Assembly (NCBI RefSeq): GCF_013167455.1
Contig: NZ_CP038328.1
Strand: one strand, 5' to 3'
Source: Escherichia coli O157:H7
Lineage (GTDB): Bacteria; Pseudomonadota; Gammaproteobacteria; Enterobacterales; Enterobacteriaceae
DNA length: 64,000 nucleotides
The first letter of the stretch is position 1; each line of letters starts with the position of its first letter. Positions 39,001-45,000 of this stretch are shown here, piece after piece. The position numbers are program-made.

Positions 39001-42000
39001 CAGGCGATTGGCTGTGATGCGATTTTGCCGCTAACTGAGGATGAGTCCGCCCCTCCCGGGGAATTCCTGTAAGTTAAGCCGTACCTGTTGATTAGCACTA
39101 AACTGGGTAATGAATTTATCTGCCAGTATGAATGATGCCGGGGACGGTTTTGAACTCCTGATGTCGGGTAATATGCAGGATTTTAATATTTGTTGTCGTC
39201 GGGATAATCATTATCCTGAACATAAACTGATACCTTTATCAGAGTTATTTGACGTTAATTATGGACTGAATCTTGAGCTGAATAAACTGGAGAAAGATTC
39301 TTCAGGAATTAATTTTGTTTCAAGAACGTCCAAAAATAATGGCGTCTCCGCCAGGGTTAAATTAAAAGATGGTATTAGTCCATGCCAGCAGCTGTGTTAA
39401 CTGTAGCAGCAGGAGGTTCTGTTATGGAATCGTTTGTACAGGATTCACCATTTTATAGTGGAAGAGATCTTTATTGGTTACGTCCTAAAGTTGAACTGAC
39501 TCTGGAAGAGAAATTGTACTACTGCTCTTGTATAAGAAGAAACAGACACAAATACAGCTACGGGCGTCAGGCAAACCGAACGCTGAAGAATTTACTGGTA
39601 CCGTCATTAGATTCTGTTCCGGCATGGGTATATGGTGTGACAGGGAAAATAATATCTGAATTGTCTGAACGTTGAGACTAAGAGGGCCGGAGGCCAGGTG
39701 AATGGCCACCGGGATATTTATATCAGAGTATATTGGCGATTGATTTTGCCAGCTGGTCTTCCAGATGAGGTTTAGCTTCTTCAAACTTCAGATTAACCTG
39801 GTTGGCACTGGATACAACCCGGGTCTGGTATTTATGCTGGTTGCCGGTTTCTGTGCTTGTCTGAATTTTGGAGCCTGATGTTCCCTGACGCAAAGCTGCA
39901 ACATTATCCGTTCTGACGCTGGTTCTGGTTCGCTCGGCAATCTGAACATCTGTAATCATTGTGTAATTTATATCTTCCACCATTGCATCCGCGGCCATGC
40001 CAATCAGACCGGTAGCCAGTCCAACACCGAGAGTGGTACCTGCCGACCCGGTATTGTACGCTGTGATTCCACCTCCAAGAGCAGCTCCGACTGCTGCACC
40101 TTCATAACCGCGACTCAGCCATCCCTGAGATTCACGCAGATCCATTTTGTCTGCTTTGAGAACGTTAGCCTGGATCCAGTAGTAAGCTTTATCCGGGGAA
40201 GTCATGATCTGATAACCTCTGGCTTTGACTGCATCGGCAATTTTTCCCTGTAGTCCACTCATGTCTTTATCCGACGTGTTTTTGATCTGCAGGAAAACGG
40301 TGCGTTCGCTCGCAGGTTCAAGCCAGATGGTTGAGGTGTACTGACAATAGCGGACACTACCATTTGTTCTTTTTTTAAGCAGCCATCTGATGATATTTTT
40401 CCCTGAAGGCTGCCGGGGAGATATTCCCCAGACGAGAGTGACGACGCTGACGATTGTAGAAAATCTCAATGTATTCCCGTATTACTGAGATGGCCTCATC
40501 CCGGCTCTTAAAACGATAGTGGCTCAGGCTCTCATTTTTCAGCGTTCCCCAGAAGCTTTCCATCGGAGCGTTGTCGTAACAGTTACCTTTACGCGACATT
40601 GATGTTTTCAGACCAAACTGCTCCTGTATGACCCGGTAATCGTATGCGCAGTACTGTGAACCTCGATCAGAGTGGTGGATTAGCCCGGCAGGTGGGCGCT
40701 GGCTCCTGAGCGCCATAAACAGGGCTTTACCTGTCAGCTCTTTTGTCATGCGCTCTCCCATGGCGTAGCCGACAATTTCGCACGTATAAACATCTTTGAT
40801 GCCAGCGAGGTACAACCATCCCTCCTGTGTGGCAACATACGTCAGGTCCGCCACCCAGACCTGATTTGGTGCTGTAGGAGCGAACGTCTGGTTCAGCAGA
40901 TTTGGCGCAACTGGCAGATTGTGGTTCGAGTTCGTAGTCGCCCTGAACTTGCGTTTCTGCTTACAGCGTAGCCTTAGCTCCTTACGAAGACGTGCCAGTC
41001 GGTCACGACCAACGATGATGCCATTCTCTGCCAGCTCCGTCTGGAGCCGCCGGGTTCCATATGTTTCGCGAGTGCGGATATGTGCCACCTTAATCTCCAG
41101 TTTTAGCCGCTCATCACTTTGTTTTCTGTCTGAGGGTTCATGCTGTACCCAGTTGTAATAACCGCTCCTGGATACACCAAATACCTGACACATCGCTTCA
41201 ATGGGAAATTGTTGTCGCCATTGTTCGATTAACGCGTATTTTTCAGCGACTCCTGTGCAAAATACGCTGTTGTAGATTCAATTGGTCAACGCAACAGTTA
41301 TGTGAAAACATGGGGTTGCGGAGGTTTTTTGAATGAGACGAACATTTACAGCAGAGGAAAAAGCCTCTGTTTTTGAACTATGGAAGAACGGAACAGGCTT
41401 CAGTGAAATAGCGAATATCCTGGGTTCAAAACCCGGAACGATCTTCACTATGTTAAGGGATACTGGCGGCATAAAACCCCATGAGCGTAAGCGGGCTGTA
41501 GCTCACCTGACACTGTCTGAGCGCGAGGAGATACGAGCTGGTTTGTCAGCCAAAATGAGCATTCGTGCGATAGCTACTGCGCTGAATCGCAGTCCTTCGA
41601 CGATCTCACGTGAAGTTCAGCGTAATCGTAAGCGTACAGCCTGAACCGTCTGGTCAGAATCTGACGAATTAGACAAAGTGGTGTCCACCAAATAAGTAGT
41701 GGGAACCAAAGTATCAGATATGCAGAAAAATGTGACTCCCGGCAGGCGAAAAGGCTGCCCTAATTATCCTCCCGAATTTAAACAGCAGCTCGTTGCTGCC
41801 TCCTGTGAACCCGGGATATCCATCTCAAAACTTGCTCTTGAAAATGGCATTAACGCCAATCTGTTGTTCAAATGGCGACAACAATGGCGCGAGGGAAAGC
41901 TGCTATTACCTTCTTCAGAGAGCCCCCAGCTACTTCCTGTGACTCTCGATGCAGCTGCCGAACAGCCAGAATCGCTCGCAGAGGACCCGGAAACCCTCAG

Positions 42001-45000
42001 TATCAGCTGTGAGGTAACGTTCCGGCACGGGACGCTCCGCTTCAATGGCAATGTCAGCGAAAAGCTCCTGACTCTGCTGATACAGGAACTGAAGCGATGA
42101 TCCCGTTACCTTCCGGGACCAAAATTTGGCTGGTTGCCGGTATCACCGATATGAGAAATGGCTTCAACGGCCTGGCTGCGAAAGTACAAACGGCGCTGAA
42201 AGACGATCCCATGTCCGGCCATGTTTTCATTTTCCGGGGCCGCAGCGGCAGTCAGGTTAAACTGCTGTGGTCCACCGGTGACGGACTGTGCCTCCTGACC
42301 AAACGGCTGGAGCGTGGGCGCTTCGCCTGGCCGTCAGCCCGTGATGGCAAAGTGTTCCTTACGCAGGCGCAGCTGGCGATGCTGCTGGAAGGTATCGACT
42401 GGCGACAGCCTAAGCGGCTGCTGACCTCCCTGACCATGCTGTAAATCTCTTTATCCTGGTTGTCACAGAATAAGCCCGGTAAAATACGGGCTTATGAACG
42501 ACATCTCTTCTGACGACATCTTCCTGCTGAAACAGCGCCTGGCCGAACAGGAAGCGCTGATCCACGCCCTGCAGGAAAAGCTGAGCAACCGGGAGCGCGA
42601 AATAGACCATCTGCAGGCGCAGCTGGATAAACTCCGCCGGATGAACTTCGGCAGTCGTTCCGAAAAAGTCTCCCGCCGTATCGCACAAATGGAAGCCGAT
42701 CTGAACCGGCTTCAGAAAGAGAGCGATACGCTGACTGGTAGGGTGTATGACCCGGCAGTACAGCGTCCGTTGCGTCAGACCCGCACCCGTAAGCCGTTCC
42801 CTGAATCACTACCCCGTGACGAAAAGCGACTGTTGCCTGCGGCGCCGTGCTGCCCGAACTGCGGCGGTTCACTGAGCTATCTGGGCGAGGATACCGCCGA
42901 ACAGCTGGAGTTGATGCGTAGCGCCTTCCGGGTTATCCGGACGGTACGGGAAAAACATGCCTGTACTCAGTGCGATGCCATCGTGCAGGCACCTGCACCT
43001 TCGCGGCCCATCGAGCGGGGTATCGCCGGACCGGGGCTGCTGGCCCGCGTGCTGACCTCGAAGTATGCAGAGCACACCCCGCTGTATCGCCAGTCAGAAA
43101 TATACGGCCGGCAAGGTGTGGAGCTGAGGCGTTCACTGCTGTCGGGCTGGGTGGATGCATGCTGCCGGCTGCTGTCTCCGCTGGAAGAGGCGCTTCATGG
43201 CTATGTCATGACTGACGGCAAACTCCATGCCGATGATACCCCGGTCCAGGTACTGCTGCCGGGTAATAAGAAGACGAAGACCGGGCGGTTGTGGGCGTAT
43301 GTTCGTGATGACCGCAATGCAGGGTCAGCGTTGGCACCTGCAGTGTGGTTCGCTTACAGCCCGGACAGAAAAGGCATCCATCCGCAGACTCATCTTGCCT
43401 GCTTCAGCGGTGTGCTGCAAGCGGATGCGTACGCCGGGTTCAACGAGCTGTATCGCAATGGTGGGATAACGGAAGCTGCCTGCTGGGCTCATGCCCGCCG
43501 AAAGATCCACGATGTGCACGTCCGCATCCCGTCAGCACTGACGGAAGAAGCCCTGGAGCAGATCGGTCAGTTGTACGCCATAGAGGCGGATATAAGGGGA
43601 ATGCCGGCAGAGCAGCGGCTTGCTGAACGTCAGCGAAAAACGAAACCGTTGTTGAAATCCCTGGAAAGCTGGTTGCGTGAAAAGATGAAGACCCTGTCGC
43701 GACACTCAGAGTTGGCGAAGGCGTTCGCGTACGCACTTAACCAGTGGCCGGCACTGACGTACTATGCGAACGATGGCTGGGTGGAAATCGACAACAACAT
43801 CGCTGAAAATGCCCTGCGGGCGGTCAGTCTGGGTCGTAAAAACTTCCTGTTCTTCGGCTCTGATCATGGTGGTGAGCGGGGAGCGCTACTGTACAGCCTG
43901 ATCGGGACGTGCAAACTGAATGACGTGGATCCAGAAAGCTACCTTCGCCATGTGCTTGGCGTCATAGCAGACTGGCCGGTCAACCGGGTCAGCGAACTGC
44001 TTCCGTGGCGCATAGCACTGCCAGCTGAATAACACATCCCCGTCAATACGGCCCTCGCTGTACGCTTACGCGTAATCGGGGCAGACGCTATTACAAAGCT
44101 GTTGATGCTAATAACCGAGCCAACAGAATGGCGAAAAGGCCAAAACCGTGCTTACTGGATCAAAATTTACCATTGCGAAAGCTTGTTCTGGAAAAGCTGG
44201 AGATGAAATGGTCTCCAGAGCAAATATCAGGATGGTTAAGGCGAACAAAACCACGTCAAAAAACGCTGCGAATATCACCTGAGACAATTTATAAAACGCT
44301 GTACTTTCGTAGCCTGATTACCACTATAAAAAGGCTGCTATTGAGTATGTTGCTCAGATGCTCATATCAAATATCGGTAATCTTGAGGAATACACATTTG
44401 TTCCCGTACCACCATCCAAATGCCGTACAGATGCCGCTTACGATGACCGTATGACAGAAATTCTGCGAATTGCGCAAACCTACGAACCATGGCTGGATTT
44501 CTGGGAACTGGTTGTGCAAAACGTATCAACAATAGCCTCTCATACCGCAACAAACCGGCCCTTACCAGAAGCGATTATGGCAAACTACCAACTGGATGAA
44601 CAATTACTGGAAGGGTGCAGGCCCTAGATTGTTATTTTTGATGACGTTCTCACTGCCGGTAGTCATTTTAAAGCGATGAAAAGCCTGATACTACAACATA
44701 TTCCTGAAGCCTGTATACTGGGACTCTTTGTTGCCCGAACAACCCGGGGAGCTCAAATTATTTAAAAAGGGTAAAGTACTCCTTAAAATTAAATCACTGA
44801 TTCATCGCCGTCAGCTATAATCCTGTACCCCATCGCTTTATAACCCCGCTGACGTTTATCCCACATTCTGAGCAGCACAGGATACGCGGTATCCACAAAA
44901 TCAATGATCCTGACATCGCTTTTACCGGTATGCTCTCTGTGAAGACGCCCTGCATACTGCTGTAATGTCCCTTTCCATGACACAGGCATGGCAAGAATCA

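Follow-up and report, generated by a model that had tools for sequence, protein, structure and literature searches.

A resident ISEc8 copy inside a truncated IS30 of the tellurite-resistance/adherence island of Escherichia coli O157:H7

How did an IS66-family element come to lie within an IS30 transposase gene that is itself cut short, and do the two separate IS30 ends found in the same stretch of DNA belong to one copy or to two? These questions are raised by a window of 64 kb (the whole stretch of E. coli O157:H7 DNA that was analysed), which is the tellurite/urease/iha island, with iha, the ter genes, the ure operon, an integrase and the ycdU flank, and which is 99.99% identical to strain EC4115. 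It would be wrong to equate the two throughout, given an extra IS629/IS1203 of EC4115 near window position 47837, of which the window has no copy. The nested arrangement of ISEc8 in IS30 is ordinary mobile-element debris, already known and annotated; both insertion sequence (IS) types are curated, the island has been studied thoroughly, and each piece of the nest has its RefSeq annotation. ISEc8 transposed into nt 350-357 of IS30, and the host IS30 is a fragment (nt 1-594), very probably left from a nest broken by inversion and deletion.

The IS66-family element and its target site

The inserted element and its three open reading frames (ORFs) are the following:

41628-44069, plus strand: IS66-family element ISEc8, 2442 bp
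41720-42100, plus strand: ISEc8 tnpA, IS66 accessory protein, 126 aa (PF01527, HTH_Tnp_1, and NF047595, above cut-off; RefSeq WP_001171554.1)
42097-42444, plus strand: ISEc8 tnpB, IS66 Orf2-type accessory protein, 115 aa (PF05717, 1e-38; NF033819, 3e-35)
42494-44032, plus strand: ISEc8 tnpC, IS66-family DDE transposase, 512 aa, intact (PF03050, 2e-106, with zf-IS66, LZ and C-terminal domains; NF033517, 1e-137)

The stop codon of tnpA and the start codon of tnpB overlap (ATGA), and all three ORFs score above the curated cut-offs of the IS66 TnpA, IS66 Orf2/TnpB and DDE_Tnp_IS66/transpos_IS66 profiles. A hallmark of the IS66 family is the presence of imperfect terminal inverted repeats of about 20-30 bp that begin with GTAAGCG. 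Here, the repeats at 41628-41649 and 44048-44069 (GTAAGCGTACAGCCTGAACCGT and GTAAGCGTACAGCGAGGGCCGT) both begin with GTAAGCGTACAGC and agree, by eye, at 18 of 22 positions; a repeat-finding tool reported 23 nt at 83% by counting in one flanking base. Both tips of the element are directly abutted by GCGTAATC, which forms an exact 8-bp target-site duplication at 41620-41627 (left copy, IS30 nt 350-357) and 44070-44077 (right copy). The tnpA-tnpB-tnpC order, the GTAAGCG-type inverted repeats and the 8-bp duplication are all those of the IS66 family. The IS66-family assignment, the 2442-bp length and the termini of the original prediction are confirmed, and its 8-bp duplication is borne out as well. 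The same 8-mer also occurs at 2271 and 55870 within the window, at both places unrelated to the element; about two occurrences per strand are expected in 64 kb, and an exact match at both tips of an element bounded by inverted repeats is far beyond chance.

The name ISEc8 is the RefSeq label, the product name sitting on the identical protein WP_000998048.1. The literature searched gave no support for the length and duplication size of ISEc8, and ISEc84, which was met in that literature, is an unrelated IS91-family element. This ISEc8 copy has its three ORFs and both ends intact; it moved into its present site, as an allele without the element in enterotoxigenic (ETEC) strains shows, and may still be able to transpose.

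The host IS30 and the nest around it

The pieces of the host element, together with those of the surrounding IS600 and traT, lie at two places in the window:

41271-41627, plus strand: IS30 left piece, nt 1-357, with the left inverted repeat TGTAGATTCAATTGGTCAACGCAACAG and insI codons 1-98 (100% to intact IS30; HTH_38 domain)
44070-44314, plus strand: IS30 right piece, nt 350-594, opening with the 8 nt of the right GCGTAATC copy; ends ...TLYFRS
44315-44765, plus strand: 3' remnant of a 208-aa hypothetical gene (reference: L004 and L005, where the dprA / 208-aa gene / TOTE locus is intact)
30244-30290, minus strand: right end of IS30 (nt 1175-1221) with the right inverted repeat; all 47 nt agree with reverse-complemented IS30
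29917-30243, plus strand: left 327 nt of IS600, up to the point in orfA where IS30 inserted (2 mismatches to the intact IS600 of locus L007)
40332-41270, minus strand: IS600 right part, 939 nt (RefSeq 'IS3-like element IS600 family transposase, incomplete')
29791-29916, plus strand: traT 5' part, 42 codons, ending in the IS600 3-bp duplication ACC
39723-40331, minus strand: traT 3' part, starting with the second ACC

When ISEc8 and one duplication copy are removed, the joined segments 41271-41627 and 44078-44314 give 594 nt that match intact IS30 copies in one piece at 100% and restore the reading ...QRNR/GRRYYKAV...TLYFRS. ISEc8 splits the transposase gene at codon 99, between QRNR and GRRYYKAV as had been claimed, and IS30 is indeed cut off after TLYFRS. 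Against an intact 1221-bp IS30 (comparison locus L003, 1201-2421), the match stops at IS30 nt 594, window position 44314, so that the end given earlier, 44325, lies 11 nt too far. Of a complete IS30, with 1221 bp and 26-bp terminal inverted repeats, only nt 1-594 and nt 1175-1221 are left, mutually inverted, and of the full transposase, a single ORF of 383 aa with an N-terminal HTH and a C-terminal DDE region, only codons 1-177. HTH_38 is found in this remnant, which lacks the catalytic part and for that reason reaches only 54.6 with NF033563, short of the cut-off of 80. The ORF at 41333-41644 (plus strand) encodes 103 aa with only the HTH region, its last four codons lying inside ISEc8, and the left IS30 piece retains the IS30 upstream region ahead of it. 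If expressed, this fragment could bind IS30 ends and brake the other IS30 copies of O157 in trans, in a dominant-negative manner, an effect that we consider very unlikely.

At 44313-44314, IS30 nt 594 is fused to the interior of the 208-aa gene through a 2-bp microhomology, CC. In comparison with L004 and L005, the first ~176 nt of this gene are gone, as is dprA upstream of it; the remnant carries a nonsense change (TGG to TAG, 44625-44627) and adjoins a TOTE primase-helicase gene. The 208-aa gene has no sequence match in Pfam, NCBIfam or PDB, which leaves a phosphoribosyltransferase-like VIFDDVLTAGS motif, seen by eye, unsupported. On the other side, the IS30 right end meets the 3' end of a sat-like autotransporter gene at 30290/30291; the alignment with sat shows TC to be common to both, and each of the two new junctions has a 2-bp microhomology.

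The element that surrounds IS30 has the features of IS600, of the IS3 family: about 1.26 kb, TG...CA ends, orfA and orfB with a frameshift site, the 3-bp duplication ACC, and rve and HTH_21 domains. Its right part has nine mismatches to the L007 copy, 4 of the 9 inside one 7-nt patch that differs in L007. The IS30 flanks in IS600 are GC (30242-30243) and AC (reverse complement of 41269-41270), with one of the two bases in agreement, AC being the K-12-type flank; this imperfect duplication weighs against the reconstruction. A single ancestral nest is deduced because the two IS600 parts sum to 1266 nt (the 1264 nt of the intact copy plus 2 bp, lengths that fit a 2-bp IS30 duplication), ACC stands at both outer ends, the joined traT parts give an uninterrupted 243-aa TraT, and the orientations of the two IS30 pieces are mutually consistent with one such nest. 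On this sequence evidence, 30244-30290 and 41271-44314 are probably the two ends of the same IS30 copy, apparently parted by an inversion. The 'solo IS30-type end' at 30244 of the original prediction is thus an IS30 end, and in all probability represents nt 1175-1221 of this copy rather than a separate IS30 event.

The IS600::IS30 composite, with the same site and orientation (2487 bp), is intact at 99.7% in many E. coli genomes, at other loci. A synthetic un-inverted query of 3222 nt (traT 5' part, IS600 left part, reverse-complemented IS30, IS600 right part and traT 3' part) returned no record at a coverage of at least 80% among complete E. coli genomes. The traT/IS600 junction occurs in only three plasmid records, and the one inspected, pB39_V, has the rearranged structure of the window. 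The inversion is a reconstruction and not an observed ancestor, since the un-inverted nest is absent from every genome and plasmid of the collections searched.

Order of events and competing readings

Four porcine ETEC chromosomes carry the empty site: 994 nt across it match without ISEc8, in one piece and at 100%, with a single copy of GCGTAATC, in an island with the same gene order and both rearrangement junctions as the window. Since the truncated IS30 occurs without ISEc8 in these islands, the truncation very probably came before the ISEc8 insertion. O157:H7 strain PV15-279 (H27) was dropped as an empty site, as it holds a different, prophage-borne truncated IS30.

The reverse order, in which ISEc8 entered a full-length, active IS30 that was truncated later, so that the ETEC allele would be a product of precise excision, was suggested by the wording of the original prediction, and the order of the two events is not fixed by the sequence alone. 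It is nevertheless very unlikely, given that the ETEC allele matches at 100% across the site, shows no footprint and has the same truncation junction, and that among the best matches listed ISEc8 is carried only by the truncated IS30 and by no full-length one. Such an excision would have to take out the element and one copy of the duplication cleanly, which is seldom seen with DDE-type insertion sequences. The 8-bp repeat could also be a coincidence, the element having been placed by recombination between IS copies and not by transposition; GCGTAATC does stand at two other places in the window, and the about nine ISEc8 copies per O157 genome could recombine (PMC7430833). However, IS30 is contiguous on both flanks and duplicated by exactly 8 bp, and in nature there is an allele from which precisely the element and 8 bp are missing, so that this idea has practically no probability left and is already refuted by the empty site.

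The two IS30 ends could instead derive from independent insertions at 30244 and 41271 that separate deletions later truncated, with no inversion, and in other strains (L003, L006) IS30 has repeatedly hit the same site of IS600-type orfA, in both orientations. Such a history would need IS600 to have entered traT twice independently, at one and the same codon and with an ACC duplication each time, as well as the retention of exactly complementary halves, which sum to 1264+2 nt and rebuild traT without gap or overlap; it is strongly disfavoured and highly improbable.

In the preferred history, a single nest broken before ISEc8 arrived, IS600 would have entered traT with the 3-bp duplication ACC, and IS30 would then have entered the recurrent site of IS600 orfA with a 2-bp duplication, or else a pre-formed IS600::IS30 composite may have moved as a unit. 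One rearrangement by end-joining, with no transposase involved, would next have inverted ~14 kb (30291-44314, including the ure operon) and deleted IS30 nt 595-1174, dprA and the 5' end of the 208-aa gene. Inversion and deletion driven by the IS30 transposase were rejected, as both new junctions fall within IS30, at nt 594 and nt 1175, away from its tips, and link it to non-IS DNA through 2-bp microhomology. No relative keeps an intact autotransporter gene beside ureG (in the search for one, coverage falls from 100% directly to 49%, at about 90% identity, with sat of uropathogenic strains), so that the change may have been one event or an inversion followed by deletions. ISEc8 would have arrived last, in an IS30 piece already dead, and IS629/IS1203 copies and deletions would have been gained later by individual strains. 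The ISEc8 insertion has no obvious functional consequence and is a neutral build-up of mobile DNA in an inactivated stretch.

Distribution and comparison with known elements

The IS30/ISEc8 junction is found in 436 of 5426 complete E. coli genomes, the 30290/30291 junction (IS30 right end and sat-like fragment) in 573, and the two rearrangement junctions in 510-573. In O111:H8, ISEc8 lies at the same site, and in other strains this spot has taken up IS629/IS1203 copies and undergone more deletions, so the earlier description of a hotspot of sequential insertion and deletion holds. The biological weight of the arrangement is small and its main use is as a lineage marker: the IS30/ISEc8 junction and the two rearrangement junctions are clean, ordered markers for the diversification and spread of the island among EHEC and porcine ETEC. 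According to the reconstruction, the ure operon would lie inside a segment inverted relative to the ancestral island, and the same rearrangement would have cost the adjacent TOTE-type conflict locus its dprA and a portion of the 208-aa partner gene.

The window carries the genes named above in common with the tellurite-resistance/adherence island of EHEC O157:H7 (OI-43/OI-48, SpLE1), in which IS-driven deletions are documented (PMC3064760). In comparison with the IS30 of E. coli K-12 (1221 bp), the window copy retains nt 1-594 and nt 1175-1221 at 100% to an intact copy, lacks nt 595-1174 and the catalytic domain, and has its ends 11 kb apart and mutually inverted; this remnant cannot transpose on its own. 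Its insertion site in the orfA of an IS3-family element is the one used in other strains, and 2-bp duplications and a preference for hot spots are known for IS30 (PMC9333248). Alignment with the segment at 22334-24866, which had been proposed as a comparison, showed a second IS66-family member and a different element, IS682 by its RefSeq name (2533 bp), which is likewise nested in another IS, flanked by the 8-bp duplication GAGAAAGA, and whose ends begin with GTAAGCGT; it shares only 65-68% identity with the ISEc8 copy, runs on the opposite strand, and has inserted into an IS66-family tnpC, not into IS30. Two IS predominate in O157 genomes, of which ISEc8 is one; Sakai has nine copies of it (PMC7430833). 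The element at 41628-44069 shares with the ISEc8 of E. coli O157:H7, a name assigned through RefSeq, the three-ORF layout, the GTAAGCG-type inverted repeats and the 8-bp duplication, with no difference detected, and is one resident ISEc8 copy of O157.

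ISEc8 within an IS30 remnant

The IS66-family element at this site, which RefSeq product names identify as ISEc8, lies within the remains of an IS30 element, with an intact conflict-system gene to its right.

Features of the ISEc8 insertion and its right flank
41628-44069: ISEc8 element, 2442 bp
41720-42100: tnpA of ISEc8; scores far over the cut-offs of its Pfam and NCBIfam models
42097-42444: tnpB of ISEc8, its start and the stop of tnpA overlapping; scores far over the cut-offs of its Pfam and NCBIfam models
42494-44032: tnpC of ISEc8, 512 aa; scores far over the cut-offs of its Pfam and NCBIfam models
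44789-47173, minus strand: primase (AEP)-helicase gene, 794 aa, intact

ISEc8 starts with GTAAGCGTACAGCCTGAACCGT and its opposite end reads GTAAGCGTACAGCGAGGGCCGT in reverse complement (18/22 positions match by eye), while GCGTAATC abuts both tips, at 41620-41627 and 44070-44077. The three genes are intact and in the IS66 order tnpA-tnpB-tnpC, and identical proteins are named IS66-like TnpA, TnpB and 'ISEc8 family transposase' in RefSeq. The original prediction of an IS66-family element with an 8-bp duplication is thus borne out by its extent, its flanks and its gene content. When joined, the host pieces 41271-41627 and 44078-44314 make up 594 nt, which align in one piece and at 100% to intact IS30 copies; in the complete 1221-bp IS30 used as reference (1201-2421 of L003, a locus of K-12-derived ER1709), the duplicated octamer corresponds to nt 350-357 and the identity ends after nt 594, at window position 44314. 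Joining also restores the reading frame ...QRNR GRRYYKAV...TLYFRS, confirming that the IS30 transposase was split between ...QRNR and GRRYYKAV... and cut off after TLYFRS; only the proposed end, 44325, lay 11 nt too far. The predicted insertion is real, and was precisely described and correctly interpreted.

The element at 22334-24866 (2533 bp; IS682 in RefSeq), with which a comparison had been proposed, also belongs to the IS66 family but is a distinct member, 65-68% identical to the ISEc8 copy, on the opposite strand and with its own duplication, GAGAAAGA, at 22326-22333 and 24867-24874. It lies within tnpC of a third IS66-family element (tnpA and tnpB at ~20764-21421), forming a second nested pair at 20764-25585. 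Isolated IS66-type left ends are found at 2303-2372 (84% identical to ISEc8 nt 1-70) and at 8168-8186 (GTAAGCGTACAGCCTGAAC, 19 nt that agree fully with the tip of ISEc8), the latter inside a short TerD-family CDS according to coordinate mapping onto strain EC4115.

The traT::IS600::IS30 nest and its probable rearrangement

The predicted 'solo' IS30 end at 30244 does exist, since 30244-30290 is the reverse complement of IS30 nt 1175-1221 (47/47), but reconstruction of the nest assigns it to the same IS30 copy rather than a separate one. On its left it adjoins the initial 327 nt of the IS3-family element IS600 (29917-30243) and, beyond these, the first 42 codons of traT; the other IS30 piece has on its left, in minus-strand orientation, the remaining 939 nt of IS600 (40332-41270) and then the rest of traT. 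The IS600 parts add to 1266 nt, which equals an intact copy (1264 nt; L007, E. coli AR_0372) plus a putative 2-bp IS30 duplication, both outer IS600 ends carry a duplicated ACC, the traT parts give a 243-aa TraT with neither gap nor overlap, and IS30 is opposite to IS600 at both junctions. Therefore, these pieces derive from one nest, traT::IS600::IS30, that was broken by a putative rearrangement. The IS600::IS30 composite as reconstructed, with identical insertion site and orientation, is intact at a different locus in many E. coli genomes (2487 bp, 99.7%).

Relative to this nest, the segment 30291-44314 (~14 kb, including the ure operon) would have been inverted, with loss of IS30 nt 595-1174. 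Both breakpoints are inside IS30, and each joins it to unrelated DNA through a 2-bp microhomology: TC is common to IS30 and a sat-like autotransporter gene, whose last ~240 nt follow 30290, and CC to IS30 nt 594 and the sequence ~176 nt inside a gene for a 208-aa hypothetical protein. The IS30 transposase was considered as the cause and rejected; it acts at the tips of the element (PMC9333248), and because the breakpoints are internal, with 2-bp microhomologies and unrelated partners, illegitimate end-joining or template switching is the probable origin. The genome and plasmid collections contained no un-inverted traT::IS600::IS30; three plasmid records had the traT/IS600 junction, and pB39_V, the one examined, is rearranged like the window.

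The fragment beside ureG (30291-30530) corresponds to the 3' end of a sat-like gene encoding a serine-protease autotransporter (~87-90% identity to sat from uropathogenic strains), and no relative carried an intact autotransporter gene beside ureG. On the other side, the uninterrupted order dprA, 208-aa gene and convergent TOTE primase-helicase gene is kept in E. coli N2512 and on an M11 plasmid, each ~97% identical. Compared with them, the window lacks dprA and the 5' end of the 208-aa gene, whose remnant carries a further TGG-to-TAG change at 44625-44627, leaving this TOTE-type conflict locus (44315-47173) half destroyed. The 208-aa protein had no match in Pfam, NCBIfam or PDB.

In different strains, IS30 has entered IS600/IS911-type orfA at one and the same dinucleotide (AC in ...AAAAAAGCA AC AGCG...), in both orientations; examples are L003 (1190-1201), L006 from GN05505 (~600) and other E. 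coli genome matches. This fits the hot-spot targeting known for IS30 (PMC9333248). The 'intact' IS600 of L007 reads GCAAC TGTAGAT TTTGCAC at 690-706, versus AC AGCGTAT TTTGCAC in the right IS600 part of the window (41262-41270); its seven substituted bases equal the IS30 tip, as if an IS30 had once been taken out here by a 1223-bp deletion, shifted by 7 nt, that left a scar and kept orfA in frame.

The empty site and the order of events

An ISEc8-free 994-nt query across the site aligned without a break, at 100% identity, to four chromosomes of porcine ETEC. The ETEC1746 island (L009) has the gene order of the window and is 99.9% identical to it on both sides of a gap that comprises precisely the 2442-bp element and 8 bp more, and it shares the 30290/30291 and IS30-nt-594 junctions. 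Having the truncation junctions but not ISEc8, it argues that ISEc8 entered an already truncated, non-functional IS30 fragment, and, judging from these alignments, ISEc8 would have arrived last. The yfjI-family gene of ETEC1746 has 48 additional bases (L009 19733-19780) relative to window 49252/49253. In O157:H7 7.1_Anguil (NZ_CP076232.1), the ISEc8-bearing locus is accompanied by a second IS600/truncated IS30/208-aa-gene junction without ISEc8 (5362962-5363956, 99.4%), which points to another, diverged copy of the island within this genome.

Distribution and island setting

The 3055-nt IS30/ISEc8 stretch recurs at 100% identity in hundreds of E. coli O157:H7 chromosomes. Its IS30/ISEc8 junction is present in 436 of 5426 complete genomes; 573 genomes have the junction of the IS30 right end with the sat-like fragment (30290/30291), and 510 genomes have 44315-44800, just right of the IS30 truncation. 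Decay has continued at the locus: in O111:H8, with ISEc8 at the identical site, IS629/IS1203 took out the left part of ISEc8 and the left IS30 piece; in strains 155 and 9234 it lies within that IS30 piece; and F3113 is missing the right IS30 piece, IS600, traT and part of tnpC, its TOTE gene carrying another IS629. The insertions and losses in 155, 9234 and F3113 support the proposed hotspot of IS insertion and deletion, and agree with the published IS-driven instability of the island (PMC3064760).

Annotation shows that the window is the tellurite-resistance/urease/iha island of OI-43/48 or SpLE1 type, with iha, ter genes, the nested IS66-family cluster, ureDABCEFG, traT, the TOTE-type primase-helicase gene and an integrase, followed by the ycdU chromosomal flank. 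EC4115 (NC_011353) is 99.99% identical, apart from one additional IS629/IS1203 (~1.3 kb) near window ~47837, between inovirus-Gp2-like and yfjI-like genes; the window thus stems from another O157 strain or copy of the island. The arrangement is ordinary: both the IS and the IS remnant that hosts it are known, as is the island, RefSeq already annotates them, and hundreds of genomes carry the insertion. The analysis contributes the empty-site allele and the history, a four-level nest with a probable 14-kb inversion and ISEc8 as its likely last arrival.
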